This document shows, piece after piece, positions 1 through 34,864 of a stretch of DNA of 64,000 nt. Location of the stretch: NCBI GenBank assembly GCA_965552135.1, contig CBEVQY010000003.1, positions 24,632 to 88,631 on the forward strand, in the 5' to 3' direction. The position numbers and the translations under genes were made by a program. Source of the DNA: an uncultured bacterium (GTDB lineage Bacteria > UBP14 > UBA6098 > B30-G16). The notes under the pieces were generated by a model, which was given only the letters and a program-made list of their open reading frames with translations, had not been told where the DNA came from and ran no database searches. Positions within the stretch are counted from its first letter, which is position 1. Each line of letters begins with the position of its first letter.

Positions 1-119
1 TTGTAGTAGGCTTTGACCCCCCTTTGGATCTCCCTGTGCCCACTTGCGAGGGCGGCGCACGCCGCAAGCAAAAGCACCAAGGCTATCCCAAGCCTGCACA
101 CCATCGTGACCCACCCCGT

Positions 120-1016: not shown

Positions 1017-1169
1017 GCCTTCGAACAATATAGCCCTTCCGGCGCTTTGTGCAAGCAAGCTTTTGGAAAACAAGCCCGTTGGACGCCCATTGCAAAAATG
1101 GCTTGACTTAGAGCACAATATAGTCTACTTTTACAAACAAGTTAGCTTGTGTGCAGTCAAGGGGGATAA

Positions 1170-2483: not shown

Positions 2484-2567
2484 AGGGTGCTGCCGAACCC
2501 CCAGAGCCAAGGGCTTCGGGCAACAGGTGGTGGGAGGCGAGCAATCGAGGGCTGGGATGCAAATTCG

Positions 2568-2692
2568 GCGCAGCGCGCAGGCTTTGGACAGATACCTCGG
2601 CGTGAGCGCAGGCTTTGGACAATACATTGGTGTGAGCGCAGGTTTTAGGCAAATGCCTCGGCGTGAGCGCAGGTTTTGGGCAATGCCTCGGC
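2568..2692. repeat. Tandem direct repeat, four 30-31 bp units (consensus GTGAGCGCAGGYTTTGGRCAAATRCCTCGGC)
   Basis: Read directly in the sequence. The units are contiguous with no spacers and end about 40 bp before the RBS (GGAGGTG 2721-2727) and ATG 2734 of the giant surface-protein gene. Confidence 0.75.
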
Positions 2693-2733
2693 GTGAAATC
2701 GTGAAATATAGAAAAAATTCGGAGGTGTAACAG

Positions 2734-5700: not shown

Positions 5701-7281
5701 CTGTCGCTCAAGCACGGCGTTATCGAGGGCTTCGTTATGCTCTCAACCGGACCCACCGACCTTTCCGGAACGATCGTCACCCTCGACGGCGAGGACGTCG
5801 CGTACACCGATATGACTGGCTTCTTCCGCTTTGAGGACGTCGCCTACGGGACGCACAGCCTCCATTTCCAGCACGATGGCTTCCTCCCGAAGGACACGAG
5901 CGTGTACCTTTGGGAGCCCGGGACGCTTGAGGTCAGCGTGATGCTCGAGGAAAGCCTTTACTTCAATCCGCCTCGGAACCTCACGATCTACTCTCGCCAC
6001 CACCACCGAGTAGCGATAAGGTGGGATCCGCCCGAGCCTTGTCCCGCCACGCTGGTGGGCTACGGCGTGATAAGGTCCTACATAACCCCCACCGGCGGCG
6101 ACACCATAGCGATTTTGCCGAAGTGGGCTACGGGCTACATCGACAGGGACGTTGGCGAGGGCGCGACCGACGTCTATTGGTATTGGGTTTTTGCGATATA
6201 CGCTGAGGGCACAAGCGGCGCTGCGGGTCCTCGTATGGGCTGGGCAGGCGACAATCCCGATGACCCCGACGTCCTTGTGGTGGACTTCGACAACGGCGCG
6301 CTCCTTGCTGACGGCGCCACCGCAGACGAAGCACAAGCCCTGGCAGATCTCCTCCAGGACGCCGGATACAACGTTGACGTAACCTCCCAGGACGAGCAGC
6401 TTGTCGACTTCGAGAACGATCTTCTGCTCTACCAGGCTGTCTTTGTCGTCACTGGCATTCGCGACGCCAACAACGAGCTCCTTTCGGACGGCTCTTTGGA
6501 GGTTTTGCGCGATTATCTTGGCGCCGGCGGCTGCCTCTACTGGGAGGGCGCCGACGTCGCCGCCGATTACTCCGACGCCCTCGGCGGCGACTGGCTGCCG
6601 ATGCTGGGCGTCTCCCTCGCAGACGACGGTCGCGGAAGGGGCGTTGGGAACGTGAGCGAGCTCTTCGGCGACGTCACATTCTTCTTCAACGACCTCGACC
6701 TCCACTACGACTACCGCACACGCAGCGACCACTACATAGACGAGCTTTGGGCTGAGGGCAGCGCAGTGGCTGTGCTGCTTTCGCAGGATACACCGCCGCC
6801 GAACGTGTCGAACGTGAGGATGGTGGCTTACTACGGCGTTCACCCCGAATTCACCTCGACGTGGCGAGCGGTGACGTCCTCGATATACCTTGGCGGAATT
6901 CAGTTCTCCGACGAGGTCAACAACAGGTGGGAGGTTCTGCGCGGAGTCTGGAACTTCCTCACCGGGGTCGACATCGGTCCCTACACCGGCGTGACCGAAG
7001 GGGGCAAGCAGACTTTGCCGCAGGAGCTTTCGCTTTCGCTTTCGCCAACTCCGTTCAACAGCGCGCTTGACGTGAGCGTGAGGCTTTCTGCACAGCGGGA
7101 CGTTGAGCTCTACGTTGAGGACCTTAGCGGCAGGCGGGTTTCGACGCTTTTTGCGGGAAGGCTTTCGGCAGGCGAACATACCTTCCGCTGGAACGCCGGA
7201 AACGCGCCCTCGGGAACGTATCTTGTCGTCCTGAAGTCCGGCGGAAGGTGCGAGGCACAAAAGGCGGTGCTTGTGCGCTGA
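2734..7281 (+). CDS. Giant secreted multi-domain surface protein (1515 aa) with T9SS type-A C-terminal sorting domain
   Basis: Signal peptide MRKTLAVVLVLLGVFAGAYA. Three copies of an unrecognised ~150-aa N-terminal module interleaved with Ig-like (SbsA/Big-type) domains. Six carboxypeptidase-regulatory-like (CarbopepD_reg) beta-sandwich repeats (e.g. TVVSIPSLGISDTTDSDGSYELCGLAAGTYTVLFEHDGYEPQ). An FN3-like segment, a GATase1/ThuA-like fold segment, and a C-terminal T9SS CTD (LSLSPTPFNSALDVSV...GTYLVVLKSGGRCEAQKAVLVR). Confidence 0.85.
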   Translation: MRKTLAVVLVLLGVFAGAYALSWRVELAVSAGDETRTLLWGVDPAASDGYDHGIDENFPILPPSGLYAYFAIDDPYNPYVTMLSEDVRGDELVEHVWRGTAGGAVDPITVSWNPLAIPLGSAEIGIGTATVPPIEWIDMTTSSSVVITAGQYFWIRFTPAASGADSPPYVVSTDPADGAADVPTTASIEIILADDETGIDPSSVLLTVNGEDVTARASFVRMGNEFGIYYAPESGFPPSSTVEVSVSAAEISTSPESLSYSFSFSTGAELAEVLWEQWITVYDVSPSGDTTAIGLSFGVDSLCTGGFDPGYDVPLPIPPGGSFYAYFPISDPDYPFISMLKRDIRGVGGEDVWIVRTGNPGVYEFVEWDPYTLPEGVELEVGVAFPPESPSEWVNMRDVERIEVSPGQWVWLRRVVAPVVDTLPPYLVSSVPSVGATGVALSTSITVIIADDGCGVDTSSVVFVVDGEDVTSDAEMTVVGDLVYITYDPPTDFPSLYTVSWSVEVSDLATPPNSALIEGYFTTGYFPTPAWACTLVFDVSPAEGSPYVVNLVFGVDEAGTDGFDVGLDYPVAPPIPGAPAFYFFIEDTLWSQLARDIRSSLDDSIVWVAHCVGVDTTWGRFSVSWNASALPEEGYFFFAVTDMSTPPAEWTPMTSVTSLDIYSDSRLFVLYTSEVYYCLSGVVSLEGEDDYSGTVVSIPSLGISDTTDSDGSYELCGLAAGTYTVLFEHDGYEPQEHTLEIVGDMMFDVTLYPYYYRVDGVVALEGVPSGEWDGTVVRLGDNVTVTDPDGYFVFNNVRSGEYAFSAEHEGFVPFDTVILVDDTTMLYVELAAEVHYGDLVVLVDLEGGGDLSGTGVVLSGTDTAYTDASGAAVFEDLEYGTYELHIFREGYQPGELLVTVDEPVETVSTTLSLLRGTVEVTVDLEGDGDLSGTMVVLDGVDTAYTDASGTAVFSEIVYGEHSLYVWREGYQPQSMDFTVDEPTELISLVLSLKHGVIEGFVMLSTGPTDLSGTIVTLDGEDVAYTDMTGFFRFEDVAYGTHSLHFQHDGFLPKDTSVYLWEPGTLEVSVMLEESLYFNPPRNLTIYSRHHHRVAIRWDPPEPCPATLVGYGVIRSYITPTGGDTIAILPKWATGYIDRDVGEGATDVYWYWVFAIYAEGTSGAAGPRMGWAGDNPDDPDVLVVDFDNGALLADGATADEAQALADLLQDAGYNVDVTSQDEQLVDFENDLLLYQAVFVVTGIRDANNELLSDGSLEVLRDYLGAGGCLYWEGADVAADYSDALGGDWLPMLGVSLADDGRGRGVGNVSELFGDVTFFFNDLDLHYDYRTRSDHYIDELWAEGSAVAVLLSQDTPPPNVSNVRMVAYYGVHPEFTSTWRAVTSSIYLGGIQFSDEVNNRWEVLRGVWNFLTGVDIGPYTGVTEGGKQTLPQELSLSLSPTPFNSALDVSVRLSAQRDVELYVEDLSGRRVSTLFAGRLSAGEHTFRWNAGNAPSGTYLVVLKSGGRCEAQKAVLVR
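5260..5970 (+). repeat. Intragenic tandem repeats of 237 bp (79 aa) encoding CarbopepD_reg-like domains
   Basis: Units starting at 5260 and 5497 are about 80% identical at the DNA level (gtcgacctggagggg... versus gtcgacctcgagggc...). A third, more diverged unit follows at about 5734-5970. Confidence 0.55.
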
Positions 7282-17248: not shown

Positions 17249-18496
17249 ATGGTCAAGTTCGTCTACGACTTGCTTTGGTGGGTCGGGCTTTTTGTTGTGT
17301 GGCCCGTTTTGCTTTTGTGGGGGATCGTTCGCGGCGAGCGCTTGCTCGACCGGCTTGGTCTGTGGCGCGGCGTCCCGAAGGGGTGCGTGTGGATACACGG
17401 GTCGTCTTTGGGGGAGTGCGCCGAGGCGCTGGCGCTGGCAAAGGCTCTTCGAAGGCGCGGCGCACCGATTCTGCTTACGGCAACAACGCTTGCCGGATAC
17501 AGGCGCCTGGTCGAGGACGCCCCGAGGGGGTGCGTTGTCCGCCAGCAGCCCCTCGACCATCCGCTCTGCGTCGCTGCCGCCGCGTCGGCGGCTAAGCCAC
17601 GTCTGCTCGTCGTCCTCGAGTCTGATCTCTGGCTCGGCATGATCTCCGCCGCCCGCGCCGAAGGCGCCAGGGTGATCGTCGCAAGCGCAAAGCTTTCCGA
17701 AAAAACGCTTCGCAGAGCAAAGGGTCTCGAGGGATTTTTCGCCGAGCTCTGGCGGCACGTCGACTTCGTATACGCGAGGAGCAGGCTCGATGCTGCGCGC
17801 TTCGTTGAGGCAGGGCTCGATCCACAAAAGGTGGCGGTTCTGGGGGACCTTAAGCTCTCCGTCGACGTCGGAGAGCCTCTGCCGAAGCCCGAGCGCTTCC
17901 CCATAGTCGTTGCGGGGAGCGTTCGCGCAAAGGAGGAGGTCGTTGTGGTCGACGCCTTCGTCGGGCTGCGGAGGGTTTTTCCAAAGGCACTTTTGGTTTT
18001 GGCGCCGCGGCACCAAGATAGGTTCGACGCCGCCGCAAGGCTTCTGGAGAGGCGGGGAATCCCTTTCTCGAGGCGTTCGCGCTCAAACGGTCCTAAACCT
18101 CAGGACGCGGCGTTTCTGATAGATACGCTGGGCGAGCTTGGGAAGTTCTATTCGTGGGGCGATATAGCGATAGTTGGCGGCACCTTCGCCGACTACGGCG
18201 GGCACAATCCGATAGAGCCCGTTCTCTTCGGCGTGCCTGTGGTTCACGGTCCGAGCACGCACAGCAACGCCGAGCTTTTCGCCCTCGTCGACGAAGCCTG
18301 CGCGGGGGTTTGCGTTGACGCCGATGAGCTTGCCGAGGCGCTTTCGGGGATCCTCTCGGACGAAGCGAGGCTCTCGCGCCTCAAGGACGCCGCGGAGAAA
18401 CTCGCCAACCGACTCTCATCGTTGGGCGACCGCTACGCCCAGGAGATCTACTCGCGGTGGATAAAAAAATGGAGCGTAGGGGATTCGAACCCCTGA
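17249..18496 (+). CDS. waaA: 3-deoxy-D-manno-octulosonic-acid (Kdo) transferase
   Basis: N-terminal membrane anchor, then VWIHGSSLGECAEALALAKAL (Kdo-transferase N-domain) and a GT-B C-terminal domain (IVGGTFADYGGHNPIEPVLFGVPVVHGP). The 3' end overlaps the tRNA on the opposite strand. Confidence 0.85.
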   Translation: MVKFVYDLLWWVGLFVVWPVLLLWGIVRGERLLDRLGLWRGVPKGCVWIHGSSLGECAEALALAKALRRRGAPILLTATTLAGYRRLVEDAPRGCVVRQQPLDHPLCVAAAASAAKPRLLVVLESDLWLGMISAARAEGARVIVASAKLSEKTLRRAKGLEGFFAELWRHVDFVYARSRLDAARFVEAGLDPQKVAVLGDLKLSVDVGEPLPKPERFPIVVAGSVRAKEEVVVVDAFVGLRRVFPKALLVLAPRHQDRFDAAARLLERRGIPFSRRSRSNGPKPQDAAFLIDTLGELGKFYSWGDIAIVGGTFADYGGHNPIEPVLFGVPVVHGPSTHSNAELFALVDEACAGVCVDADELAEALSGILSDEARLSRLKDAAEKLANRLSSLGDRYAQEIYSRWIKKWSVGDSNP

Positions 18497-18542
18497 CCTC
18501 GACGCTGCCAGCGTCGCGCTCTCCCAGCTGAGCTAACGCCCC
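18470..18542 (-). tRNA. tRNA-Ala (anticodon GGC)
   Basis: The minus-strand sequence GGGGCGTTAGCTCAGCTGGGAGAGCGCGACGCTGGCAGCGTCGAGGTCAGGGGTTCGAATCCCCTACGCTCCA folds as a cloverleaf with a G3:U70 pair (the alanine identity element), anticodon loop CTGGCAG and T-loop TTCGAAT. No CCA is encoded. Confidence 0.9.
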
Positions 18543-18822
18543 GTCGTCTTTTATTATACCCCACCTTCCCGCGTGGCGCAAGACTTTTTTGCGGGCGTTG
18601 TCCACGCCTTTCCCTAAGCTTTTTAACTGGGAAACTTGTGCCTCTTTGTTTGATGCGGTTTGCACCGTTTCCAAAGTTCAGTTTTCCGTCGGGTTTGCTG
18701 TAGCAGTGTTTCGCTTATCCACTTTACGTTCTGCGTTGGAAAATGAGGACATTGAATTTTGTTCGCCCCTGTGCGTCAAGACGAAAAGATTGTTTCTGAT
18801 TGTTGCTGCCTCAATGTTGATG

Positions 18823-20619
18823 TTAACGAATCAGGATTGCTCGCTTGGTGACTGTTCGGTTGGCGACTTTAAGACGAACAAGGTAAAGGCTGCTTGGGAC
18901 GTCATTGGACGGAGTCCAGAAGACGGTATAAGTTCCAGGATCTTGTCGCGTATTCAGAAGCCTCGTGCCGAAACGTCCTTCGGTGTCATATACTTCAAGG
19001 ATAACCTGAGCTTGGATTGGAACAGTGTAACTTATCTTCAGTAAGGAGTTGAAAGGATTGGGAGATAGCATCATGGATAACTCGCAAGGTTTAAGGTTGG
19101 CTGTTTCTATTTTCGAGGAATGCTTACTGTATCGCAAAGTATAACAACCCCATGTCCATTCGTCATATCCTCGAACTCTCAAATAAAACCAGCCTGAGTG
19201 CGGAGCAAACCAATCGCTGATCGCAAAATTGAGGGATTCGCCACTGTCGTCGTCATCCACCAGAATAAGCCCCAGAGGATCATCAAATATTTCCCCATAA
19301 GTGTCTGTGGAGCCCGTTGTGTAAAATGTAAATCTATCACCTTCGATGGCGTAAAACTGGAACCAATCACCATCTCCCATTGGGGCTATGGTGTGATTTT
19401 GTGCGTGTTCGACCTCAGATATGTCGTCTAATACTGTTGCCATTGCATAATCGTTATCGCATTCGTATTCGTCGCCGCAGTAGCACGGGCTAATAAGGGA
19501 GGGGTCAGGAACAGACACTGTTAGGGTGAATTCGTCTGGCGTTTGCATGTATTGGTAGTTTATTCCCTCGAAGAGGCCTACTTCCGTTCCAAACTCAAGG
19601 AAATATGAAAATCCTCCATATACTGAAGTTCCTACTTCGAAGTATCCTCCTGACACAATTGTCCTAGCTGCTAATCTATAATAGACCTCAAGAGGCAAAC
19701 ACTCTAGTTCTGATGCAGGACCGCAGACATTGAGGTGAACTCTGGATTCAGCCACTGTTGCCAACCCTCCTTCCGAGCCATACGCATCCTCGGAATACCA
19801 TGGTGGGGCACTAATATGGAAATAGCACAGGAAATTGGGGGTATATTCATATGTGTTATTATCATACAACTCGTCTATATCTGCTCTGTTCCACTCAGCA
19901 GTAATGTGAATGTTTTCATCCGAACATAGAGGAGGAAGTTTCTCTGTATAAAATCTAATTACGCCAAGCGGATGGACGATGATTCCCCTACCGTCGTCGT
20001 GCGTTGTCATTTGAGCCGTTTTGCCCCAGATCAGCAGTGACGTTAAAAAGTACCCTGGCAAGCAAGCGTCATCAAAGGGATCTAGTACTGTAAAGTCGAA
20101 GTTGAACGGAGAAGTTCCTTCGTCATCGCCATTATGCCACGTTAATGTTCCGCTCAGGCGATATAGTCCGCAAGGCATATGTGAGGCAAGTATCACAATT
20201 ATGCAAGCGCTCCTATTGCCGAAATCGAGAGGGGGTAAATCCCAAAACCAGCCTGAAGGTCCATAGAGATTAAAGTTTCCTGTCATGGTAACTTGTCTCC
20301 CCCATCCTCCAATCCAGTCGGTGCCCAAATCGCCATACTCCTCGCCATAGTGAGAGTAGTCGAGTTGTCGACAGACCATATATGGCTTTAAGTATATTAT
20401 TATTGAATCGAGATCGTAGGCTGGGGTGGTTTCGTAGATCACAGATATTGCACCAACAAGATTGTAATCGATGGTCCAGTCGAAGACGGTTGCTCCATCG
20501 ACGCCGTTGCGTATGTTGTAGAATATGTTTTTATCAAAGCAAAAATTCTGAACGGATACTGCTTTTGCGTCGACTATTAAAAAGCAAAGTATAAATATTA
20601 GTAGCTTTGTATTTTTCAT
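18823..20619 (-). CDS. Secreted protein with pre-peptidase C-terminal (PPC) domain and T9SS C-terminal sorting domain
   Basis: Signal peptide MKNTKLLIFILCFLIVDAKA. A PPC-like segment DGDWFQFYAIEGDRFTFYTTGSTDTYGEIFDDPLGLILVDDDDSG...GWFYLRVRGY. The C-terminal LSPNPFNSLLKISYTV...SSLYLVRLKVANRTVTKRAILIR is a T9SS CTD. Codon usage is AT-rich, unlike its neighbours. Confidence 0.7.
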   Translation of the reverse strand: MKNTKLLIFILCFLIVDAKAVSVQNFCFDKNIFYNIRNGVDGATVFDWTIDYNLVGAISVIYETTPAYDLDSIIIYLKPYMVCRQLDYSHYGEEYGDLGTDWIGGWGRQVTMTGNFNLYGPSGWFWDLPPLDFGNRSACIIVILASHMPCGLYRLSGTLTWHNGDDEGTSPFNFDFTVLDPFDDACLPGYFLTSLLIWGKTAQMTTHDDGRGIIVHPLGVIRFYTEKLPPLCSDENIHITAEWNRADIDELYDNNTYEYTPNFLCYFHISAPPWYSEDAYGSEGGLATVAESRVHLNVCGPASELECLPLEVYYRLAARTIVSGGYFEVGTSVYGGFSYFLEFGTEVGLFEGINYQYMQTPDEFTLTVSVPDPSLISPCYCGDEYECDNDYAMATVLDDISEVEHAQNHTIAPMGDGDWFQFYAIEGDRFTFYTTGSTDTYGEIFDDPLGLILVDDDDSGESLNFAISDWFAPHSGWFYLRVRGYDEWTWGCYTLRYSKHSSKIETANLKPCELSMMLSPNPFNSLLKISYTVPIQAQVILEVYDTEGRFGTRLLNTRQDPGTYTVFWTPSNDVPSSLYLVRLKVANRTVTKRAILIR

Positions 20620-20713
20620 TCTTACGCCCTCCTGCCTAATATTTTACACAAAGCACTAAAATGTCCTCAAGGAACTCGGGTTTACTCGGTATTTTTATCC
20701 TCATTGTATCGTA

Positions 20714-21424
20714 TCATCGGAGCAGAGTTATCCGTTTAATTAGCGTTTGGGCGGAGGTTTTTAGGAGAATGAGATAGACGCCATTGCGAATATCGTCGGA
20801 CGGGGTCCAGAACGTCGTATGAGAACCGGCGCTCAGATGTTCGTTCCTAAGGGCTGCAACAGGATGTCCCATTATATCGCAGATTTTGAGGGAGACATTT
20901 TGATCTAGAGGCAGATCATATCGAATAAGGATCACTTCATTAAAAGGATTGGGCGACACTCTTAGAGTGATTGTGTGAGGTGTGCAGCTTTCCTCTACTT
21001 TAACATAACATGTTTCGAGCTCAACAGCATCCAGTATCTCATCAGGTTCGGTAGGTTCGTAGTCATCGTCCCAATAGACTACAAAGTAAATGGGCAGGTT
21101 GGCATAAGTGGGTATGGTAATCAAGCCTTCAGGAGGATAGGGACAGGTAACTGTCGTTTCAGTAGGGGAGTATCCTCCGCGAGCAATTGCATGATACGAA
21201 TGGAAAAAGTCGGTATCTGCATCCATTACTGCGACATATAAATGCAAGCTGTCATTGGAGGGCAGATTCCACCAATGCAAGGTAAACTCGCAGGAGTACG
21301 GTTCTCCGAGTGCGCAGCATGGAAAATCAGGGGCTATAAACTCAGCTCCCAGGCCCCATATGAGGGGACTTGTGAGTGTAATGAAAGGCGTTAGGATCAA
21401 AAGTCTTTTCGGCAAATTCTCCAT
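20714..21424 (-). CDS. Small secreted hypothetical protein with T9SS C-terminal sorting domain
   Basis: Signal peptide, an unknown roughly 130-aa N-domain, then ITLRVSPNPFNEVILIRYDL...NGVYLILLKTSAQTLIKRITLLR. It lies in the low-GC islet. Confidence 0.65.
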   Translation of the reverse strand: MENLPKRLLILTPFITLTSPLIWGLGAEFIAPDFPCCALGEPYSCEFTLHWWNLPSNDSLHLYVAVMDADTDFFHSYHAIARGGYSPTETTVTCPYPPEGLITIPTYANLPIYFVVYWDDDYEPTEPDEILDAVELETCYVKVEESCTPHTITLRVSPNPFNEVILIRYDLPLDQNVSLKICDIMGHPVAALRNEHLSAGSHTTFWTPSDDIRNGVYLILLKTSAQTLIKRITLLR

Positions 21425-25698: not shown

Positions 25699-26829
25699 CT
25701 ATCGCAAGCGGAATACGAAGCCGTCCTGTGTGGAGAGGAAGATGCTTTTCCCGTCGGATGCTGGAGGTTGCCTCACCTTCTTTCCGATGTCGAGTTCGCC
25801 CCGCACTGTGCCGTCTTCGATCGAGATCAGGAAGATCCTTCCCGCGTACGTTGCCACGACTGCGTCGTCGCCCACAAGGATCGGCGGTGCAGCCACAACC
25901 GACGAGAGGTTTGTGCGCCACAGGGGCTCTCCGAGCGCGTTTACGCAAAGCACGTTGCCGCTCGTTGTGGCGGCTACGATGAGTTCTTCGCGCGCCGCCG
26001 GCGCAAGGAGTCGCAGACCGAGCTCTTTTCTCCACAGCGTCGAGCCGTCGTCCCTTTTGAGGGCAGAGATGGCGTTGTCGCTCGCTGCGATAACCGCTTT
26101 CCCAGCAAGCGCGACGGCTGTGACGGCGTGCTCAACCCGCCTCCGCCAGATGACGTCGCCGCCGGTTGTGACCGCGCAGACCAAGTTTCCCGCGGCAACC
26201 CAGAGCGTATCGCCACATACGGCTGGTTGCGCCAGTGCGGGTCCTCCGAGGTCGAGCTTCAGCGTTGTCTGCCCCGTCGCCGCCGAAAGCAAAAAGAGCC
26301 TCCCCGAGAGGGTTGCCAGCGCAAGCAGGGAGCCCACAGGCGCCGGTGTGGTTGCGACGTCGCCGGCAAACCTTCGCCAAATCAGCTTGTCGCGCAACAG
26401 GTTATAGACGCCGACGCGGTTCCAGTTGCCGAAGCCCGCGAAGATCATAAGCGAGTCGCGGAGGGTCGGCGGCAGCTGCATCGGCGTGTCGACCCAAAGC
26501 CTTGCGGCGGGCTTCCCCGTTGCCGCGTCGAGCGCCACAACGTACTTCGACGGCGTCCCCACGAAGACGAGCTCACCGTAAATCGTTGGCGCCGTGGGAT
26601 CGAGGGAGCGGATATCCGTCCTCCAGGCGATGTCAAGCCTACGGGAAAGCGTCCCCTCCGTTGCGCCGCTGTTTCCGACGTCGTGTCGCGGCAAGGGCCA
26701 TTCGCCGGCCCGGGCTATGTCCTCTGCCGTAAGCAGCGGTTTTCGGGTGCAGCCCGTGACAAGCGCAGCCAAAAGCGCAAGCACAAGGGCAGACTTCGCG
26801 TATCGCCGCCCTGAAGCAGGCGAGTTCAT
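25699..26829 (-). CDS. PQQ-like beta-propeller repeat lipoprotein (BamB-like)
   Basis: Start MNSPASGRRYAKSALVLALLAALVTGC, with a lipobox LVTGC. Repeated LWR/VWRR...G beta-propeller blades. Its start overlaps the stop of the upstream giant gene as ATGA at 26829. The track ORF extends further upstream (to 27294) through R-rich sequence, which is unlikely to be real. Confidence 0.7.
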   Translation of the reverse strand: MNSPASGRRYAKSALVLALLAALVTGCTRKPLLTAEDIARAGEWPLPRHDVGNSGATEGTLSRRLDIAWRTDIRSLDPTAPTIYGELVFVGTPSKYVVALDAATGKPAARLWVDTPMQLPPTLRDSLMIFAGFGNWNRVGVYNLLRDKLIWRRFAGDVATTPAPVGSLLALATLSGRLFLLSAATGQTTLKLDLGGPALAQPAVCGDTLWVAAGNLVCAVTTGGDVIWRRRVEHAVTAVALAGKAVIAASDNAISALKRDDGSTLWRKELGLRLLAPAAREELIVAATTSGNVLCVNALGEPLWRTNLSSVVAAPPILVGDDAVVATYAGRIFLISIEDGTVRGELDIGKKVRQPPASDGKSIFLSTQDGFVFRLR

Positions 26830-29800
26830 CAGCGCACCAAAAGCGTCTTCCTCACGAACCTGCGTCCGCCCACGTCCACGACGAGCAGGTAAATCCCCGA
26901 CGAGGCGTTCTTCGCGCTCCACCTCAGGGTGTATCTGCCCGCGGGGAGGACCTTTCCGCCCGCGATCGTCGCGACGACGCGCCCGGCAAGGTCGGTGACT
27001 CTGGCGCTCACAGCGGTTGGCTCCGCCAGGTACAGGTCGACCTCGGTGACGCTGTTGAAGGGATTTGGGTACGGCATACCGACCGACGTCCTTCGCGGCA
27101 GCGTCTCGCACACCTTGGTCGTCGAGGTGTCTATGAACGCGACGGCGCCGCTGTCGACCGGGAGACACGCAGCGGGATTCCCGTAGCTCACGTACGCAAG
27201 CCCTTCGCCGTAAGCGTTTTCGACGCCTATTGTCGCGACTTCGCGGGCAGCATCGGGCACCGAGAGGTAGACCACCTGCCCCGTGAGGATGCACGGCGAG
27301 GCGCCAGCTTCAACGATGGGTATCCAAAGCTGGAACGTCGCGGGCTTGCCGCTTGGGTCGAAGTAGGCGTAAAAGTCCTTCCACTCCACCACGAAGAAGG
27401 AGTCTCCGCACGGGGTCTCGAACGGGGCGGCGCTGTAGCCGTAGAAGATCCGCCCGGCGGGGAGGGTGTCCTCAGGCGGCTCCGGAGTGAGGTCGGTCCA
27501 CAGGGCGGCAAAGAGCAGGTTAGGCAGGCTGCTGTCGGGGATGGAGCCGTTCGTGTAGGCGTAGTCGCAGGTCGTGTCGAACGTCACGAAGCCGTTGGAG
27601 CATATCCTCACCCAGGGCTCGGCTATTTCCTCCCCGATGAAGGTTATGGGCGGTCCGAGGGGTTTGGTTTCGGAAATGAAGTAATCTGTGACCGAGTGGT
27701 TTGGTGTTCCGGAGCCGCCCTGGTGGGGGTCGAGCTCGACCCAGGCGAAGGTGGGCACGAAGGGTGCATCGCCCGCGTCGGCGAAGTTGTCGGCGAAGAT
27801 AAGTGCTAAAGCATCGTTGGCGCCGTGGTGCGGATCACCTATCGCCGATGTGAACCGCATCGCCGGTGCGCCCTCGGGCAGAACGCTGCGGTTGCCAGCA
27901 GTGTCCCACGCAACGAAGTAGTACGAAAGCGTCTCACCCTCCGCAAGCTCCGAAAGCAGATAGCCGTAAGTGGTTCCCAACGTCGTTTCGGCTGTGGCGA
28001 ATGAGGCTTCACCGCCGCATTCGTAGTAGAGCGTTTCTGCGGCGAGGTCTGCCGCGTTGATCTGCGCGAAGAGCCAAAGCACAAAGCCCTCGCTTGCGCA
28101 AAGGTACACAAGGCTTTCGGGCTCGTGCGCTATCTGCGGCGGGAAGGTATCAACGAACTCGGATGGGGGAACGAATCTTATAGCAAGCTCGTCTATGACG
28201 GGGTTTTCGGGCGGGGCACCGTTGTACTCGTAGATAAGCCCCGAGGTCCCGTCGGGGGATGATATTCCCACCGTCGCCGAGTTGCCGCGAACGCGACCTA
28301 TATCCTCAACCCCCACAAGCCCGGTGTACTGGAGGACGATGCCTCCGTCCTCGGCGAGGATGACCTCGAAGGTTATGCGGTCCGTCGTCGACGAGTACGG
28401 AACGTAGACGTTGGAGAAGATTACGAGGAAGCGCTGAGTTCCGTCGGAGATGTCCGTTTTGGTGTATATCTTCGACGCCGGCGATGCCATGTCGTTGACC
28501 TTCAGGTCGTCCCAGAAGGGGGCGATAACTCCAGCGATGGTTGTGGTTGGCAGGCTGTCGTTCCAGGCGTGGGAGCTTGTAAGCGGCTCGAACGCCAAAA
28601 AGCCGTTGGTCGAAACCCAGACCGTATCGAACGACGTTTCGTAGAACGGGAAGCTGAACGGCAGGGGCAGGGCAGTGTATTCGTCGTCGCCGGCGAGGTC
28701 GAGCTCGGTTGCGTCGGAGGTGATTATCTCCTCGAACTCCGGAGCCTCGGCGCCGTCGTAGTAGTTGTCGTACCACATGTATCCCGCGACGTCGGGTCCG
28801 CCGAAGCCCACGTGGTGCAGCCCCTCGAACCTGACCGTGAGGGTGTCGTCGCTTGGGACCTCGTCGCCGTAGCAGCTTGTGACGAAGACGGCGGAGTACG
28901 AATCGGCGGGGAAGTCGGTCCAGGGCGAGAAGAGGACGGTATCGGCTGTGCCCGAGGCTATGTCTACGTACTGGGTATCGGCGTAGACTAAGCCGCTTGC
29001 GTCGCCTGTGATCGTGAGGACCACAGGCACGTGTGCTTCGTCGAACGAGCCGAAGTTCCGCACCGCGCAGGCAGGGGTTATGACCTCGATGTTCACAACG
29101 CGACCAAAGGGCGCAATAGCCGAAACAACGGCTATGTTGTGGTCGACTGGAGCGGGCGGCAGAAACTCTATCCTAAGCGAGTCCGAAAGCGAAGCCTCGT
29201 TGTACGAATACTGCAGCCCTACGGTGCCGTCCTCGTTTTCGATCCCTATAGTGGCGCTGGCGCCGTGACTGTAGCTCGGTTCGCCCTCGAGGGTCGCATC
29301 GAGGTACTGGAAGACGATTGCGCCGTCTCCGGATGAGCTTTCGTAGAGTATAGCCTCGTACGTCCACACGTCCTCGATGAAGCCAAGGCGGAAGAAGTTG
29401 TACCAGATCACCGCAAACCACCGCTCCGGCTCCTCCCCGCCGCTTACGGCGTATATCGCCGTCTCTATCGTGTCCACGTCGTAGTACTTTTGGTCGTCCC
29501 AGAGGGGCAGGATGAGCCCGTTGGGCGTCGATGCGTCGGGGATAGGCTCGTTGAAGAACTCGGTGACCTCGTCGGGATAGAACGACAGAAGCCCGTTCGT
29601 GCTGACCCAGATGCTGTCGTAGTCTATGCCGTAGAACGAGAAGGTGAACGGCAGGTGGACGACCAAGGCTTCGTCGTCATCGCCCGGAAGGAAGGCGAGA
29701 GGGGTGTCCGCTGGGCTTGGGGATATCCACTCGAACGCGACGCCGGGTTCTTCGCTGTCGCGGAATGTGTAGCCGTAGTCGTCCGGTCCGCCCGTCGAAG

Positions 29801-29861
29801 CCCAAACTGCAAAGAAAGCCAAAACCACAACCCAAAAAGCTGCGCGCAACATGGGATTCAC
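26829..29861 (-). CDS. Large secreted protein (1010 aa) with three copies of an unrecognised ~200-aa module and a T9SS C-terminal sorting domain
   Basis: Signal peptide MNPMLRAAFWVVVLAFFAVWA. The repeated modules are marked by GYxxxD...LPFxFxFYxxxYDxxWVSTNGxLxF. The C-terminus MPYPNPFNSVTEVDLYL...SGIYLLVVDVGGRRFVRKTLLVR is a T9SS CTD. Confidence 0.8.
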   Translation of the reverse strand: MNPMLRAAFWVVVLAFFAVWASTGGPDDYGYTFRDSEEPGVAFEWISPSPADTPLAFLPGDDDEALVVHLPFTFSFYGIDYDSIWVSTNGLLSFYPDEVTEFFNEPIPDASTPNGLILPLWDDQKYYDVDTIETAIYAVSGGEEPERWFAVIWYNFFRLGFIEDVWTYEAILYESSSGDGAIVFQYLDATLEGEPSYSHGASATIGIENEDGTVGLQYSYNEASLSDSLRIEFLPPAPVDHNIAVVSAIAPFGRVVNIEVITPACAVRNFGSFDEAHVPVVLTITGDASGLVYADTQYVDIASGTADTVLFSPWTDFPADSYSAVFVTSCYGDEVPSDDTLTVRFEGLHHVGFGGPDVAGYMWYDNYYDGAEAPEFEEIITSDATELDLAGDDEYTALPLPFSFPFYETSFDTVWVSTNGFLAFEPLTSSHAWNDSLPTTTIAGVIAPFWDDLKVNDMASPASKIYTKTDISDGTQRFLVIFSNVYVPYSSTTDRITFEVILAEDGGIVLQYTGLVGVEDIGRVRGNSATVGISSPDGTSGLIYEYNGAPPENPVIDELAIRFVPPSEFVDTFPPQIAHEPESLVYLCASEGFVLWLFAQINAADLAAETLYYECGGEASFATAETTLGTTYGYLLSELAEGETLSYYFVAWDTAGNRSVLPEGAPAMRFTSAIGDPHHGANDALALIFADNFADAGDAPFVPTFAWVELDPHQGGSGTPNHSVTDYFISETKPLGPPITFIGEEIAEPWVRICSNGFVTFDTTCDYAYTNGSIPDSSLPNLLFAALWTDLTPEPPEDTLPAGRIFYGYSAAPFETPCGDSFFVVEWKDFYAYFDPSGKPATFQLWIPIVEAGASPCILTGQVVYLSVPDAAREVATIGVENAYGEGLAYVSYGNPAACLPVDSGAVAFIDTSTTKVCETLPRRTSVGMPYPNPFNSVTEVDLYLAEPTAVSARVTDLAGRVVATIAGGKVLPAGRYTLRWSAKNASSGIYLLVVDVGGRRFVRKTLLVR

Positions 29862-29865
29862 CTCC

Positions 29866-30258
29866 CTACTTTATAAGTCCCAGAAACCTGTCGAGGTCCT
29901 CTGGGTTAACGAACCTTATGCTGCCGTAGTAACATCCCTTCCTGTTGCAGAACTGAAGCTCGCCCCCTGTGGCAAGCTCGATTTTGATCTGATCAGCTTT
30001 GCAGTAGCACTTGCCCGCTATGGGCAGGGGCTTCTCGCAGTGCGGGCAGAAGAACTTCACCACATCCCCGGGGAGGATGTCGAGCTCTTCGGGCTCTATG
30101 GTTTCGTGGTCGCCGTAGATGGCGGAAAGCCAGATGTAGCCCCGATGCCCTTTGTTCTCCACAAGGAACCTGAGGGCGGGCTTGTTTTTAATGAGGTGCT
30201 CTTCGTCGTTTAGCTTCTGGCGGCAAAGCGGGCAGATCGCTTCTATGTAGTGGTACAT
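29866..30258 (-). CDS. Cys-rich zinc-ribbon protein (CxxC...CPxC...CxC...Cx4C), unrecognised family, paralog of 32943..33464
   Basis: 130 aa. Cysteine pairs CPLC, CPHC, CYC and CNRKGC. Shares LSxIxGDH...CPxC...KCxxC...FCxxxGC...GDL motifs with the 173-aa protein at 32943..33464. Confidence 0.55.
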   Translation of the reverse strand: MYHYIEAICPLCRQKLNDEEHLIKNKPALRFLVENKGHRGYIWLSAIYGDHETIEPEELDILPGDVVKFFCPHCEKPLPIAGKCYCKADQIKIELATGGELQFCNRKGCYYGSIRFVNPEDLDRFLGLIK

Positions 30259-30270
30259 CGCACGACCTCC

Positions 30271-31629
30271 TCAGAATTTGTACATTCCGCCGATCGTAAC
30301 AAACCCTCCTGCGCTTTCGCCGACGAGGTTCCGTCTGTACGATATGTCGAGCAATACGTTTCCGAACCTGAGCATGGCGCCGGCACCTACGCCGAAGCCC
30401 GAAATCCAAACCGACTCGAAGTACGACTCCTTTTCGGCGAGGTACACGTAGCCCACATCCGCACCAGCCGAGAGGTAGAGCAAAAGCGGGCTTGCGTAGT
30501 AGAAGTTGTAGAGCGCCTCGACGCCAAAGCGCATCGTGTTCACGCTGGCTACGGTGTTGTTGAGCTTGCTTATCCTCGCCTCGGTGCGAAACGTGTCGAC
30601 TATAATGGTATCCGTGCCCGTCGGTATAGTGTCCTGATAGAAGAATGTGTCAATGCTAATTACGAGGGTATCCTGCAGGTAGTTCCATTTGACGTTGCTT
30701 CTGCCGAAGATGACGTTCCCGCGGAGGATGAATGGTCCCACAAAGTACCCCGCGCCGAGGCTGAACTCGGAAAGGGATGTAAGCCCCAGCGCGTTTACAG
30801 TATCGAACTCGCTTGGAGACTCGTAACCGCCGGGAACGTCCTTGAGGTAAATCCTTTGGGTTATGCAGCTTTGGCGCTTCTCGTCCCTTATGGAGAAGAG
30901 GTAGTTTTCGGTTGGGCTGAAGGTGTCGAAGAAAAGCCCAACAACTCGTCTCCTCGTCGTTCGGAACTCCTCCCTTTCGCGCAGAAGGGCAAGTTTTCTT
31001 TCGGCAAGCTCCTTTTGGTGCTCAAGCTTTTGCTTCTGGATCCTCTCGCGGCTTTCTATCTCGGACTTCAAAAGCTCCATATCCCTTATGCCCGCCTGCG
31101 CCTTCTCCAAAAACTCGCCGCCGGGGTTCTTCTCGATGTAGGTCCTGTAGTATCGTATCGCTTCGTCCGCGAGGTCGGATCTTGAGAGCTGGTGAGCTTT
31201 CTCACCGAAAAGCTGCGCAAGGTGATAATAGTATTGGGGGTCGAGCTCCACGAGCTTGAGCCAGACGTCGTAGTACTCGTAGTGGTTCTCGAGGGCTTTT
31301 TCGAAGTGGCTTTGTGCTTTTCCTCTGTCGCCTGCGGCGAGGTATATAAGTCCTGCCTTGTATTGCAGGAAGGCGTTTTGAGGGCGCAGCGCCAGCGCCT
31401 TCTCGATGTAGTTCGTTGCCGTCTCGTAGTCGCCCTCTTCGTAGGCGAGCCAGGCGTAGTTGTAGAGGAACTCAGGGTTGTTCAGGTTCTCCTCAAGCTC
31501 GCCCACCATATCGGTCAGGGACCTGTCGGTGTACGTTGGATATTCCCGGGGCTTTTGGAATATATCCTCGAACTCCTGCGGATGCGTCGCAACGGTAAGG
31601 AGCGCCAGAGCCCAAAAGATCCTTCTCAT
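30271..31629 (-). CDS. TPR-repeat / coiled-coil protein with C-terminal outer-membrane beta-barrel-like domain
   Basis: Signal peptide, TPR-like helices (YNYAWLAYEEGDYETATNYIEKALAL...), a charged coiled-coil (ERIQKQKLEHQKELAERKLALLRE), then alternating-hydrophobic beta-strands ending in an aromatic C-terminus (...GGMYKF), which is typical of OMP barrels. Confidence 0.6.
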   Translation of the reverse strand: MRRIFWALALLTVATHPQEFEDIFQKPREYPTYTDRSLTDMVGELEENLNNPEFLYNYAWLAYEEGDYETATNYIEKALALRPQNAFLQYKAGLIYLAAGDRGKAQSHFEKALENHYEYYDVWLKLVELDPQYYYHLAQLFGEKAHQLSRSDLADEAIRYYRTYIEKNPGGEFLEKAQAGIRDMELLKSEIESRERIQKQKLEHQKELAERKLALLREREEFRTTRRRVVGLFFDTFSPTENYLFSIRDEKRQSCITQRIYLKDVPGGYESPSEFDTVNALGLTSLSEFSLGAGYFVGPFILRGNVIFGRSNVKWNYLQDTLVISIDTFFYQDTIPTGTDTIIVDTFRTEARISKLNNTVASVNTMRFGVEALYNFYYASPLLLYLSAGADVGYVYLAEKESYFESVWISGFGVGAGAMLRFGNVLLDISYRRNLVGESAGGFVTIGGMYKF

Positions 31630-32900
31630 GCTGCCTCCTTACTGTCTTTGTTTATCTGCGGCGGAAACGCCCCAAGCGCCTTTTCGTAGAACGCGGTTAT
31701 TGGCTTGAAGTTTCTCTCCAAAAGCGTCACCAGTGCGGCGGCAAACGCGATGCTAAGAAACACAACGACGTACGCAACGCCCTGGATGAGGTCGCCGTGT
31801 TCGACGCCTTTCTGCATGGGTAGCGATGCGAGCACCGCGGCGGCAAGTCCCTTCGGAACCAAAACCGACATCACCATCGCGTCGTAGCGCGGAACCTTCT
31901 TGGGCATCGCAAACCTCACAACCAAAAGCCTCACCAGAAATATCAAAACGACAAGCCCAAAGCCTGCGGCTATTGTTCCCGCACGGGAGAATTTAATGGA
32001 AATCCCCAGGTAAAGAAAGAAAAAGATTTTGAGCAGGAAGACGATCTCCTCGAAGAAGGTTTTTTCGTACCGAGACATTTCGTCTGGCTTTTTTACCGCG
32101 AAGCGGGTGTGCTTTTGGATTCGCTCGATTGGCACGTCCTTTATGTTCGCCAGTGTTACTCCGAATGCGAGCGCTGCTATTGCGCCGCTGTAGCCGAGGA
32201 ACTCCGCAAGCCCGTAGAGGACGAAGATATACGCCATCGTCGCAAGCGCAGTTACGGGAAAGCCCTTAAGCTTCCGTAAAAGCAGTGCCCAAACCGCTCC
32301 GCCGCAAAAGCCTATCGCCGAGGCAAGGACCAGCGAGGCTATGATCTGACCGATTATGCGCCCCGTCTCCACGGCTCCCGAGGCGTACGCCTGAAGCAGG
32401 CTCATCGCAACGACTATGCAGATCACGTCGGTTATCGCGGACTCCAGAAAGAGCACAGCGTACGCCATGGGTGAGAGCCTGAGCTTTTGTATGATCGGTA
32501 TGACCACCGCCGATGATGTTCCGCCGACGATGGCGCCGGCCATCGCCGCCACAAGCGGCTTCATCCCGAAAAGCCCCCAGCATGCGAGCGCAACGACGAG
32601 CATCGTTGCCAGAAAGCAGCTCAGCGAAACGAGCGCCGTCTCGTCAAGGGATTCGCGCAGCTGGCGGACGCTTAGGTTTATGCCGCCCTCAAACAGGATC
32701 ACGATGAGCGCCACCGTCGTGGCGACGTCGCCAAGCCTCCCGAAGTGCTCCTGCTTAACAAGACCCGTCACAGGTCCAAGTATTATCCCCAAGAGGGTGA
32801 GGAGCAGCACGTCGGGTATCCTTGTGCGCTCGAAGATAGACGTGAAGAGGTAGGCGAGGAAGATTACGAGTCCCGCGCCCAGAACCACAAGCGACATCAC
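31626..32900 (-). CDS. Cation:proton antiporter (CPA family Na+/H+ exchanger-like)
   Basis: About 12 TM helices. An N-terminal LGIILGP...ILFEGG motif is characteristic of Na_H_Exchanger (PF00999). A 4-nt overlap with the downstream gene. Confidence 0.85.
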   Translation of the reverse strand: MMSLVVLGAGLVIFLAYLFTSIFERTRIPDVLLLTLLGIILGPVTGLVKQEHFGRLGDVATTVALIVILFEGGINLSVRQLRESLDETALVSLSCFLATMLVVALACWGLFGMKPLVAAMAGAIVGGTSSAVVIPIIQKLRLSPMAYAVLFLESAITDVICIVVAMSLLQAYASGAVETGRIIGQIIASLVLASAIGFCGGAVWALLLRKLKGFPVTALATMAYIFVLYGLAEFLGYSGAIAALAFGVTLANIKDVPIERIQKHTRFAVKKPDEMSRYEKTFFEEIVFLLKIFFFLYLGISIKFSRAGTIAAGFGLVVLIFLVRLLVVRFAMPKKVPRYDAMVMSVLVPKGLAAAVLASLPMQKGVEHGDLIQGVAYVVVFLSIAFAAALVTLLERNFKPITAFYEKALGAFPPQINKDSKEAA

Positions 32901-32942
32901 AAAGCCCCCGTTTGGAGTTGCGTTTTGCGGGGTGCGCGACGT

Positions 32943-33464
32943 CTACCATGCGCCCTCGACGTACTCGCGGCTTATCAGGTCGCCCGCGCGAACTATATAT
33001 GAGCTCGGACAACCAACGACGTCGCAGAAGGCTATGCCGTCGGAGACATCGAACTCCTCCGACAGCGAAAGCACCCTTATCTCGCCCTGCGAGCACTGGT
33101 CGCACTTGGTCAGCACGGGGATTTCGACCCCGCAGTAGGGGCACATAACGCTGACCTTCTCGCCGTCGACAAGCTTTACGCCGATGGAGAGGCGCGTGTG
33201 ATCGCCGAAGATGGGCGAAAGCACAACCTCGCCCTCATCGCCGCCAGGGCGCCTGACCCTCAGGCGAATCCCAGGACAGCCATTAAAGCTCGCGTAGTCC
33301 CATATCAGGTTGTGCCCGTTAGGGCAAAAGACCTTCTTGACGACCACAACCTTCCTGTGTGATTCCTTCGCTTCGCGTCTGAGCCTAAGCTCCCTCGGGT
33401 CGGGGATGATCATGAACCCGCGTTCGTCGAATATATCGCCCATCCGAAAACCTCCCTTGTTCAT
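32943..33464 (-). CDS. Cys-rich zinc-ribbon protein, paralog of 29866..30258
   Basis: 173 aa, with CPNGH, MCPYC, KCDQC and FCDVVGC motifs. Alignable to the 130-aa paralog (LSPIFGDH versus LSAIYGDH). A 4-nt overlap with apgM upstream. Confidence 0.55.
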   Translation of the reverse strand: MNKGGFRMGDIFDERGFMIIPDPRELRLRREAKESHRKVVVVKKVFCPNGHNLIWDYASFNGCPGIRLRVRRPGGDEGEVVLSPIFGDHTRLSIGVKLVDGEKVSVMCPYCGVEIPVLTKCDQCSQGEIRVLSLSEEFDVSDGIAFCDVVGCPSSYIVRAGDLISREYVEGAW

Positions 33465-34663
33465 GCCAGGAACTTGAGGAGTCTTCCCGCATCAGCCATC
33501 ATGAGAAGGATTATCGCCTCGGCAGGGATTATGCCGAGTATTCCCTTTGCGCACTCGCGCTCCGAGAACTTCTTTGCGTCGTCGGCGAATGTGTAGCGCC
33601 CCTTTATAAGGAGCGGCACCGGGTGCCAGCTGTGCCCGCCGTAAACCGCGGGCGTCGAGTGATCACCCGTTATCGTTATAACGTCGGGCGAAAGCTCCAA
33701 AAGCTCGGGAAGCTTCCTGTCGACCTCCTCTATCACCCGAACCTTCCCCTCGAAGTCCTTGTCCTCGCCGCACGAGTCGGTCTTCTTGATGTGGATGAAG
33801 AAGAAGTCGTATTCGTCCCACAGGTTTCTTGCAAGCTCGAACTCCTCCTCGATGGTCTCGCCCACGGGCGGTGTATCCATCCCCACTATTCGCGCAAGCC
33901 CGCGGTACATGGGGTACGACGCGATGCCAACCGCCCTCATGCCGTATTTCTCGGTCGAGGTCTTTATGTCCATAAGCGTTGAGTAGCCCCGCAAAAGGAC
34001 GGTGTTTGCCGGGTATTCGTCTTCGAGGATCTGCGTTGCCCGCTCGACGAACTCGTTTATGATTCTCGCCGTTTTTTCGGCGGCGCGGGAAAGCGGCATG
34101 GCTTTGACCGGGGGTTTCCCCGCGACCTGCGGGTCGGCGTCGGTGACGTCGGGCACAAGGCCGGGGCCGCGGAAGACGACCGCAAAGCGGTAGTCCTTGC
34201 CGGCGGCGATGTCGACCGTTATGTCCTCTATGGCGGTTATGTTTTCGCGGAGTTTTGCCACAAGCCTTTTGCAAAGCTCGGTGGGGATTCTTCCGGCTCG
34301 GCGGTCGGTGATAATGCCGTCCTTGAGCGTGGCGAAGTTGCCGCGCGCAGCAAGATCCCCAGGACCAACGTCAAGACCCAGACCAAAGGCTTCGAGTATC
34401 CCCCTGCGGATGTTGTACTTGAGGGGGTTGTATCCGAACAGTCCGAGGTGTCCGGGCGCGCTACCGGGCGTTATGCCGTATCCGACGGGTATGTGCAGTC
34501 CGCACGAGCCTGCCGCAGCCAGGGCGTCCATATTGGGCGTGTTGGCTACCTCAAGCTCCGTGACGCCCTCGGCGTTGGTCGTGCCGCCCAAACCGTCGAG
34601 AACAAGCAGAACAAGCTTCGTGTCGTTCTTAACGATCAGCTGCGGAAGGATTTCCTCGTACAT
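33461..34663 (-). CDS. apgM: 2,3-bisphosphoglycerate-independent phosphoglycerate mutase, archaeal type
   Basis: 400 aa. LVLLVLDGLGG...ANTPNMD (metalloenzyme domain) and ITGDHSTP...GGHSWHPVP match the ApgM family (PF10143 + PF01676). Confidence 0.85.
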   Translation of the reverse strand: MYEEILPQLIVKNDTKLVLLVLDGLGGTTNAEGVTELEVANTPNMDALAAAGSCGLHIPVGYGITPGSAPGHLGLFGYNPLKYNIRRGILEAFGLGLDVGPGDLAARGNFATLKDGIITDRRAGRIPTELCKRLVAKLRENITAIEDITVDIAAGKDYRFAVVFRGPGLVPDVTDADPQVAGKPPVKAMPLSRAAEKTARIINEFVERATQILEDEYPANTVLLRGYSTLMDIKTSTEKYGMRAVGIASYPMYRGLARIVGMDTPPVGETIEEEFELARNLWDEYDFFFIHIKKTDSCGEDKDFEGKVRVIEEVDRKLPELLELSPDVITITGDHSTPAVYGGHSWHPVPLLIKGRYTFADDAKKFSERECAKGILGIIPAEAIILLMMADAGRLLKFLA

Positions 34664-34761: not shown

Positions 34762-34794
34762 CGGAAAGCAGAAGGCTCCCAGCGCGGTGGGAGC
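34762..34794 (-). terminator. Putative intrinsic terminator downstream of fabF
   Basis: A perfect hairpin GGCTCCC-N8-GGGAGCC followed, on the minus strand, by TTCTGCTTTCC. Confidence 0.35.
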
Positions 34795-34864
34795 CTGTCA
34801 AAACCGTGGTCTGTTGATCCAAGAATGGGGCTTGCAGACAGGTGCTCAGCCTGTGCAGAGGCGC

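Follow-up and report, generated by a model that had tools for sequence, protein, structure and literature searches.

Within a 64,000-nucleotide stretch of DNA from an uncultured bacterium of the lineage UBP14; UBA6098; B30-G16 (GenBank assembly GCA_965552135.1, contig CBEVQY010000003.1, positions 24,632 to 88,631 of the forward strand; hereafter the window), 2 minus-strand genes for small Cys-rich proteins, designated S and L, bracket a gene for a cation:proton antiporter and a gene for an outer-membrane protein that combines tetratricopeptide (TPR) repeats with a β-barrel (the TPR/barrel protein). From this arrangement, an earlier note on the sequence had suggested that the 2 proteins are regulatory or chaperone subunits of an envelope complex, possibly a duplicated adaptor. 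Our analysis leads elsewhere. S and L belong to a large, well-populated, unnamed family of small zinc-ribbon-based proteins, in itself a familiar kind, with a domain arrangement that has no significant match among solved structures; and their flanking of the antiporter and TPR/barrel genes is an accident of gene order in this genome, not a conserved envelope machine. We are highly confident both of the family classification and of the coincidental nature of the bracketing; a suggestive arrangement turns out to be coincidence and a false lead on an envelope complex is removed.

The S and L proteins and their family

Gene S (29866..30258, minus strand) encodes a 130-amino-acid (aa) cytoplasmic Cys-rich protein of what we term the S-type subfamily, which resembles domain 1 of the tandem relatives described below, and gene L (32943..33443, minus strand) a 166-aa cytoplasmic Cys-rich protein of the long subfamily. 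Both are real genes, as the earlier note had them, with good coding signals. Their GC content at third codon positions (GC3) is 0.76, similar to that of neighboring genes; strong Shine-Dalgarno sites stand 7 nt upstream of each start (GGAGG for S, AAGGGAGG for L); and among orthologues of the 2 proteins the nonsynonymous difference (pN) is 0.11 to 0.27 against a saturated synonymous difference (pS) of 0.8 to 1.0. The start of L needs correction, however. It had been placed at 33464, giving a protein of 173 aa; since the ATG at 33443 is the one served by AAGGGAGG and all L homologues begin with MGYxFD at this point, L is 166 aa long and the earlier end coordinate lay 21 nt too far. The database gene call also starts L at 33443.

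The homology of the 2 proteins, proposed as paralogs, is well above chance. BLASTP aligns S with L at E 3e-10 (29% identity over 90 aa), hhalign on the 2 orthologue alignments gives a probability of 98.4% (E 4e-15, 107 columns), and a family hidden Markov model (HMM) built from 120 diverse members (alignment A3) finds L at E 3.3e-52 and S at E 1.1e-36 among the open reading frames of the 64-kb window, with no match beyond these two. The shared signature consists of 8 metal ligands in 4 collinear knuckles: CPxC in S or CPNGH in L; then, after an insert of about 58 residues carrying the motif (L)Sx(I)xGDH, a second CPxC; then CxC in S or CxxC in L; and finally Cx4C. In S these are CPLC (30223-30234), CPHC (30037-30048), CYC (30001-30009), and CNRKGC (29932-29949), and in L CPNGH (33312-33326), CPYC (33132-33143), CDQC (33093-33104), and CDVVGC (33009-33026), all on the minus strand. 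Between knuckles 1 and 2 lies the (L)S(P/A)xxG(D) loop with its conserved Ser, present on the same strand as SAIYGDH in S (30106-30126) and SPIFGDH in L (33198-33218). Thus, the earlier count of 4 collinear Cys/His pairs is borne out and supplies enough ligands for 2 metal sites; the motif set listed at that time is likewise collinear, except that its third knuckle is CxxC only in L and CxC in S. Among the 27 orthologues, 7 Cys, 1 Ser, 1 Asp, 1 Gly, and 1 Pro are invariant, the eighth ligand in the first knuckle being Cys in S and His in L, and across the 120 diverse members the 7 Cys and the loop Ser are each at least 90% conserved.

AlphaFold2 models built with the 27-sequence alignment have a mean predicted local distance difference test score (pLDDT) of 94 for S, with a predicted template modeling score (pTM) of 0.85, and a pLDDT of 83 for L. 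The S model is all-β with a single C-terminal helix; a 3-stranded meander (residues 17-44) and the Ser/Asp loop sit between knuckles 1 and 2, and 2 hairpins bear knuckles 3 and 4, as in a classical zinc ribbon. In L there are, besides, the N-terminal segment FDxxGxxIPDP and a helix. From the motif pattern, taken with the secondary structure, the 8 ligands would divide into 2 tetrahedral sites, in which the bound metal would presumably be zinc. Site A would be made from the first knuckle (CPxC or CPNGH) and the distant CPxC, clamping between them the β insert of about 58 residues with its Ser-x3-Gly-Asp loop, and site B, from CxC or CxxC plus Cx4C, would be a classical zinc ribbon. Structural resemblances to the ribbons of TFIIS, Trm112, YfgJ, and the C terminus of topoisomerase I, to the domain 2 barrel of EF-Tu, and to the PilZ protein VCA0042 are all non-significant. 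A PilZ/YcgR-like barrel was considered in its own right and set aside, as the RxxxR and (D/N)xSxxG motifs for cyclic di-GMP are absent from the family consensus; a zinc-binding anti-sigma factor (ZAS) of the HxxxCxxC kind was likewise rejected, there being no His 4 residues before any CxxC in S or L.

The family to which this fold belongs is extensive. Word-indexed searches give 13 and 14 close clusters for the 2 proteins, the S orthologues (13 clusters) being 65 to 83% identical; a full HMM search with the merged alignment gathers 378 cluster representatives at E≤1e-3 and 176 at E≤1e-10, and a second search, 419 proteins at E≤1e-6. Represented among them are Bacteroidales, Ignavibacteria, Cloacimonetes, WOR-3, TA06, Zixibacteria, Desulfobacterota (with the cultured Desulfocicer vacuolatum), and Asgard archaea, and most members belong to anaerobic lineages. 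In the databases they are named "hypothetical" or carry generic or misleading automatic labels such as "methionyl-tRNA synthetase", "topoisomerase 1 zinc finger", and "RNA-binding Zn-ribbon". The earlier note was unable to assign the proteins to a known family, and our searches bear it out. For S and L, Pfam and NCBIfam return sub-threshold generic zinc-ribbon matches only, PADLOC and PHROGs return nothing, and a PDB sequence search with either single sequence finds nothing. In Pfam, scores and cut-offs stand at 11.6 and 27.3 for DZR (PF12773), 19.7 and 26.9 for DUF5810, 19.1 and 27.9 for Zn_ribbon_Brz, 13.5 and 33.2 for HVO_2753_ZBP, and 13.3 and 28.9 for HypA; scores against NCBIfam equivalogs fall far under their cut-offs, and none of the 120 diverse members reaches any Pfam cut-off. 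With the family profile, the PDB search matches only the knuckles of YfgJ (E 2.4e-5). YfgJ (Zn_ribbon_6, PF07191; PDB 2jne and 2jrp) is a 71-aa ribbon pair that differs from S and L in lacking the β insert and in its knuckle order, and against the 25-bit cut-off of Zn_ribbon_6, L scores 15.7, S has no match, and 0 of 120 relatives pass. As to a mobile or viral origin, it was rejected, no relatives being found in 2.9 million viral contigs. This is a family well conserved from candidate phyla to Asgard archaea that is without a Pfam or NCBIfam model or a solved structure, yet has a high-confidence AlphaFold fold; a family model would improve the annotation of several hundred clusters now called hypothetical or misnamed.

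Three architectures predominate in the family: an L-type single domain of about 160 aa with the CPNGH first knuckle, an S-type single domain of about 135 aa with CPxC, and a tandem form of about 290 aa that is very common. Its own orthologues aside, S comes nearest to the short single-domain proteins, at about 42% identity, and to tandem domain 1, at up to 47% (in TA06); with L it shares just 29%, and L groups with the single-domain form of about 160 aa. The S HMM outscores the L HMM on domain 1 in 98% of 125 tandem proteins (medians 77 versus 33 bits). Domain 2 represents a third, divergent type, with a median of 19.5 bits against the L HMM versus 102 bits for true long-form proteins. Because S and L thus belong to different subfamilies, they are ancient paralogs and not the product of a local duplication, and the notion of a duplicated adaptor finds no support. 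As a separate matter, the tandem proteins (alignment A6) are 45 to 73% identical among Bacteroidales, Cloacimonetes, TA06, Zixibacteria-labelled, and Asgard bins, with 16 invariant Cys, a degree of sequence conservation that suggests strong constraint and possibly lateral transfer.

Gene order around S and L in related genomes

The 2 genes bracketed by S and L in the window, both on the minus strand, encode a 424-aa cation:proton antiporter of the CPA family (31626..32900; Na_H_Exchanger, E 5e-41) and the 452-aa TPR/barrel protein (30271..31629), which has a signal peptide, TPR repeats (TPR_2, E 1.4e-10), a charged coiled-coil stretch, and a C-terminal β-barrel that ends in ...YKF (OMP_b-brl, E 0.0097, below the cut-off). 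After S comes a gene for a secreted protein of about 1007 aa (26829..29852, minus strand) with NIDO-like repeats and a C-terminal sorting domain of the type IX secretion system (T9SS); its likely start is the ATG at 29852, which follows GGGAGG. The bracketing is unique to this genome. In the 8 other loci that carry L, it is never beside the antiporter (0 of 8) and always outside the S block, usually being followed instead by Endonuclease_NS and acyl-CoA dehydrogenase genes (fetched loci L001, L004/5, L014, L015, and L019) and sometimes preceded by a PcrB-family gene (L016, L017, and L019); in GCA_021162205.1, L and S are on separate contigs. Nor is the antiporter-TPR/barrel pair fixed. The antiporter is part of the S block only in the window, L006, and L009, and the block in L007 and L010 lacks it; in L006 and L009, a gene for FlpD (MvhD-like), with or without an Fe-S protein gene, separates it from the TPR/barrel gene. 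FlpD lies just upstream of the TPR/barrel-S pair in 4 sister loci (L006 5766-6191, L007 3767-5374, L009 7165-8664, and L010 6936-8501), accompanied in 3 of the 4 by a 353-aa FrhB_C/2x[4Fe-4S] protein; both are missing from the window, either lost or never there. The block in L007 has an insertion, either a DUF3800 gene or an asparaginase gene.

What does persist is narrower. S directly follows the TPR/barrel gene in all 6 of the S-bearing genomes (window, L006, L007/L012, L009, L010, and L011), and in 4 of the 5 informative ones S is in turn followed by the NIDO/T9SS gene. Adjacency in related genomes is therefore absent for L and for the pairing of the 2 paralogs, and kept for S and the TPR/barrel gene, within a syntenic block of mixed functions. 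The proteins themselves bear no mark of the envelope: neither S nor L has a signal peptide or membrane anchor, the highest hydropathy of any N-terminal 12-residue segment being 0.88 in S and 0.71 in L, versus 2.17 in the signal peptide of the TPR/barrel protein. Lacking a hydrophobic N terminus, S and L would be cytoplasmic. With no export signal, with relatives fused to cytoplasmic redox and sensor proteins, and with a bracketing that is not conserved, the idea of regulatory or chaperone subunits of an envelope complex is for the most part unsupported.

Relatives, possible partners, and competing readings

The only functional lead comes from other lineages, where the preferred partners of the family appear to be NAD(P)H:ferredoxin oxidoreductases. 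In a Cloacimonetes lineage and an archaeal-looking one, true NfnB homologues (L035 7791-9578 and L032 7713-9569) begin with a complete 8-Cys domain at residues 1-138. Residues 139-592 of the L035 protein match NfnB of T. maritima (4ylf_B, E 3e-166) and also NfnI of P. furiosus, while no solved structure covers the extension. In both of these unrelated lineages, tandem family genes sit 2 to 30 nt upstream of NfnA/NfnB, and in one of them a second tandem gene stands between NfnB and NuoE/NuoF. Elsewhere an S-type domain ends a NuoE-like [2Fe-2S] subunit (L025/L026 7001-7900) whose gene opens an operon of NuoF-like, NuoG-like, NfnA-like, and NfnB-like genes. The domain is also found fused to CBS pairs and to a double-zinc-ribbon/adenylate-cyclase/AAA_16 protein. 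Further contexts show no pattern: a hybrid-cluster protein as neighbor in Desulfocicer, an RF-1-domain protein, and HypA/HypB. In this last case, a single instance (L021 76-1881), the gene for an S-like 135-aa member is divergent from the nickel/zinc metallochaperone genes hypA and hypB. A side observation concerns the L032 contig, on which P0277 lies and which has the NCBI label "candidate division Zixibacteria": with genes at 1-5800 for NMD3, DUF424, and a protein with an eIF-5/eIF-2B domain (PF01873), it looks archaeal, so that the bin may be mislabelled or chimeric.

Because the same domain is elsewhere fused to or encoded beside NfnAB and NuoE/F-type NAD(P)H:ferredoxin oxidoreductases, CBS pairs, and a cyclase/STAND protein, we favor a docking or regulatory role. 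S and L would be cytoplasmic members of the unnamed family, small β-rich proteins with 2 metal sites each, and would serve as a metal-stabilized module that binds other cytoplasmic proteins, in a mode that may be likened to that of Trm112 or other zinc-knuckle subunits, which act by binding partner proteins. The likeness is one of mode only. Trm112, the activator subunit of methyltransferases, has 1 metal site and a helical insert, unlike S and L, which moreover have no methyltransferase neighbors here, and with 11.6 bits against a cut-off of 22 for Pfam Trm112p, it is not homologous by any test. Taken whole, the explanation that these are old cytoplasmic paralogs of an unnamed double-metal family, accidentally bracketing the antiporter and TPR/barrel genes and acting in docking or regulation, has in our estimate an even chance of being right. 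The docking or regulatory mechanism taken by itself, an analogy drawn from distant relatives, we regard as possible but somewhat doubtful.

Several points weigh against it. NfnAB (NfnSL) and the Bfu-type (NuoE/F-like) oxidoreductases are the only recurrent partners of the family domain, in fusions and operons, but the characterized enzymes are without it (alignments with 4ylf_B and 5jca_L begin only at residue 139), and no Nfn or NuoEF gene occurs in the window or beside S or L in their own lineage, so that the partner idea is carried over from relatives at 30 to 47% identity. The Nfn link is built on few independent lineages (2 for the operons, 2 for the NfnB fusions, and 2 for the NuoE fusions). 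The unbroken adjacency of S and the TPR/barrel gene, despite saturated synonymous divergence, is explained only as inherited synteny. Finally, the Ser/Asp loop could serve ligand binding or catalysis in place of docking, and the Cys4 sites could bind iron. A bolder form of the proposal is speculative and, we think, unlikely: S-type and domain-2-type domains would together constitute an unrecognized docking or regulatory module of electron-bifurcating NAD(P)H:ferredoxin oxidoreductases, one type carried on the NuoE-like (Bfu) subunit and the other on NfnB, with free tandem proteins of domains 1 and 2 encoded in the same operons; pairing of the domains would assemble, bridge, or gate the enzymes, and S and L would belong to this interaction system as free-standing members, working on cytoplasmic redox partners. 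Repeated fusion to NfnB and NuoE-like subunits points to an unstudied accessory part of the enzymes of flavin-based electron bifurcation, which have a central place in anaerobic energy metabolism. In a survey of the Bfu family (PMC9304861), a search by terms meets no mention of an added domain or subunit of this type, and nothing relevant was found in the literature on an Nfn/Bfu-associated zinc domain or on the function of YfgJ.

The persistence of S beside the TPR/barrel gene invites a different reading, that S alone, and not L, works with the TPR/barrel protein and/or the type IX-secreted NIDO protein, as a cytoplasmic regulator or a pre-export factor. The adjacency just described must be old, because synonymous sites between the genomes are saturated, and the genes stand 12 nt and a few nt apart in the window, without an intervening terminator. 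However, S has no signal peptide and has 8 metal-binding Cys typical of cytoplasmic proteins, while the barrel and TPR domain lie beyond the inner membrane. Moreover, the whole block is syntenic and mixed in content (antiporter, FlpD, Fe-S protein, outer-membrane protein, and secreted cargo), and thus the adjacency may be inherited order; the TPR-to-S gaps reach 118 to 372 nt in L007 and L006, and S-type relatives in 6 other lineages have no TPR/barrel homologue nearby. We consider this reading quite unlikely. To the same degree improbable is the view that the Cys4 sites hold iron in the manner of rubredoxin, S and L being small electron carriers and the fused copies extra redox centers of the Nfn/Bfu enzymes. 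It would account for a domain fused to or encoded with flavin and Fe-S oxidoreductases, for the FlpD and 2x[4Fe-4S] proteins in the sister-genome S blocks, for the acyl-CoA dehydrogenase often found after L, and for the anaerobic lineages of most members; but L-type members have at site A a Cys3His ligand set, usual for zinc, the knuckles depart from the CxxCG/CPxCG pattern of rubredoxin in their CxC and Cx4C spacings and in having no Gly behind the second Cys, there is no Pfam rubredoxin match at E≤1, and fusions to CBS pairs and a cyclase would be unexpected for an electron carrier.

Only a slim chance attaches to a heterodimer in which S and L reproduce, as 2 genes, the 2-domain tandem proteins of about 290 aa. 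The 2 genes do co-occur in assemblies or samples (GCA_021162205.1, 3300016457, and 3300030616), their orthologue sets are near-equal in size, and tandem domain 1 is of the S type. But the low score of domain 2 with the L HMM means that it is not L-like, L sits in a separate and widespread single-domain clade, and the S and L genes are unlinked outside the window. For the same reason, that domain 2 is not L-like, S plus L as the equivalent of a split tandem protein was rejected. The reading as zinc-ribbon nucleic-acid-binding regulators of transcription or translation, suggested by the sub-threshold Brz, HVO_2753, and TFIIS-like ribbon matches and by the automatic name "RNA-binding Zn-ribbon" given to some relatives, is very unlikely. 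All of these matches are under curated cut-offs and span the knuckles only, the sequence has no helix-turn-helix or basic patch, and the acidic-to-neutral isoelectric points (about 5 for L, a median of 5.7 for the tandem proteins, and 6.2 to 8.9 for S) disfavor nucleic-acid binding. With the C-terminal zinc ribbon of TFIIS/Rpb9, the likeness is limited to a 40-residue substructure; the acidic catalytic hairpin is absent from S and L, there is no link to RNA polymerase, and the isoelectric points again fall on the acidic to neutral side.

The rest of the gene run and a low-GC island

S and L are part of a longer minus-strand run, in the order acpP, fabF, a hairpin, a mutase gene, L, antiporter, TPR/barrel, S, the NIDO gene, and a BamB-like propeller gene, so that the order from L to S is as the earlier note described it. 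The terminator-like hairpin after fabF (34773..34796, minus strand) is followed by a housekeeping gene directly upstream of L, that for a cofactor-independent phosphoglycerate mutase of the ApgM type (33461..34663, minus strand), which tblastn does not find near L or S in any of the fetched loci (L001-L036). From the mutase to the NIDO gene, every intergenic gap is at most 42 nt and no terminator-like site intervenes; given these gaps after the hairpin, the 6 genes are probably a single transcription unit. The BamB-like (PQQ_2) β-propeller gene (25699-26800, minus strand) comes after the NIDO/T9SS gene and thus makes the downstream half of the cluster rich in envelope proteins, though S is cytoplasmic.

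A scan of the window with Rfam finds one tRNA only and nothing at the S/L region. This is the tRNA-Ala(GGC) at 18470-18542, adjoining a low-GC island of 2 genes (18470-21424) in which GC is 0.47 to 0.50 and GC3 is 0.45, versus about 0.75 elsewhere. Its products are a 598-aa protein that matches nothing in Pfam and one of 236 aa that bears a type IX secretion sorting domain, and the island looks like a horizontally acquired insertion at the tRNA gene.

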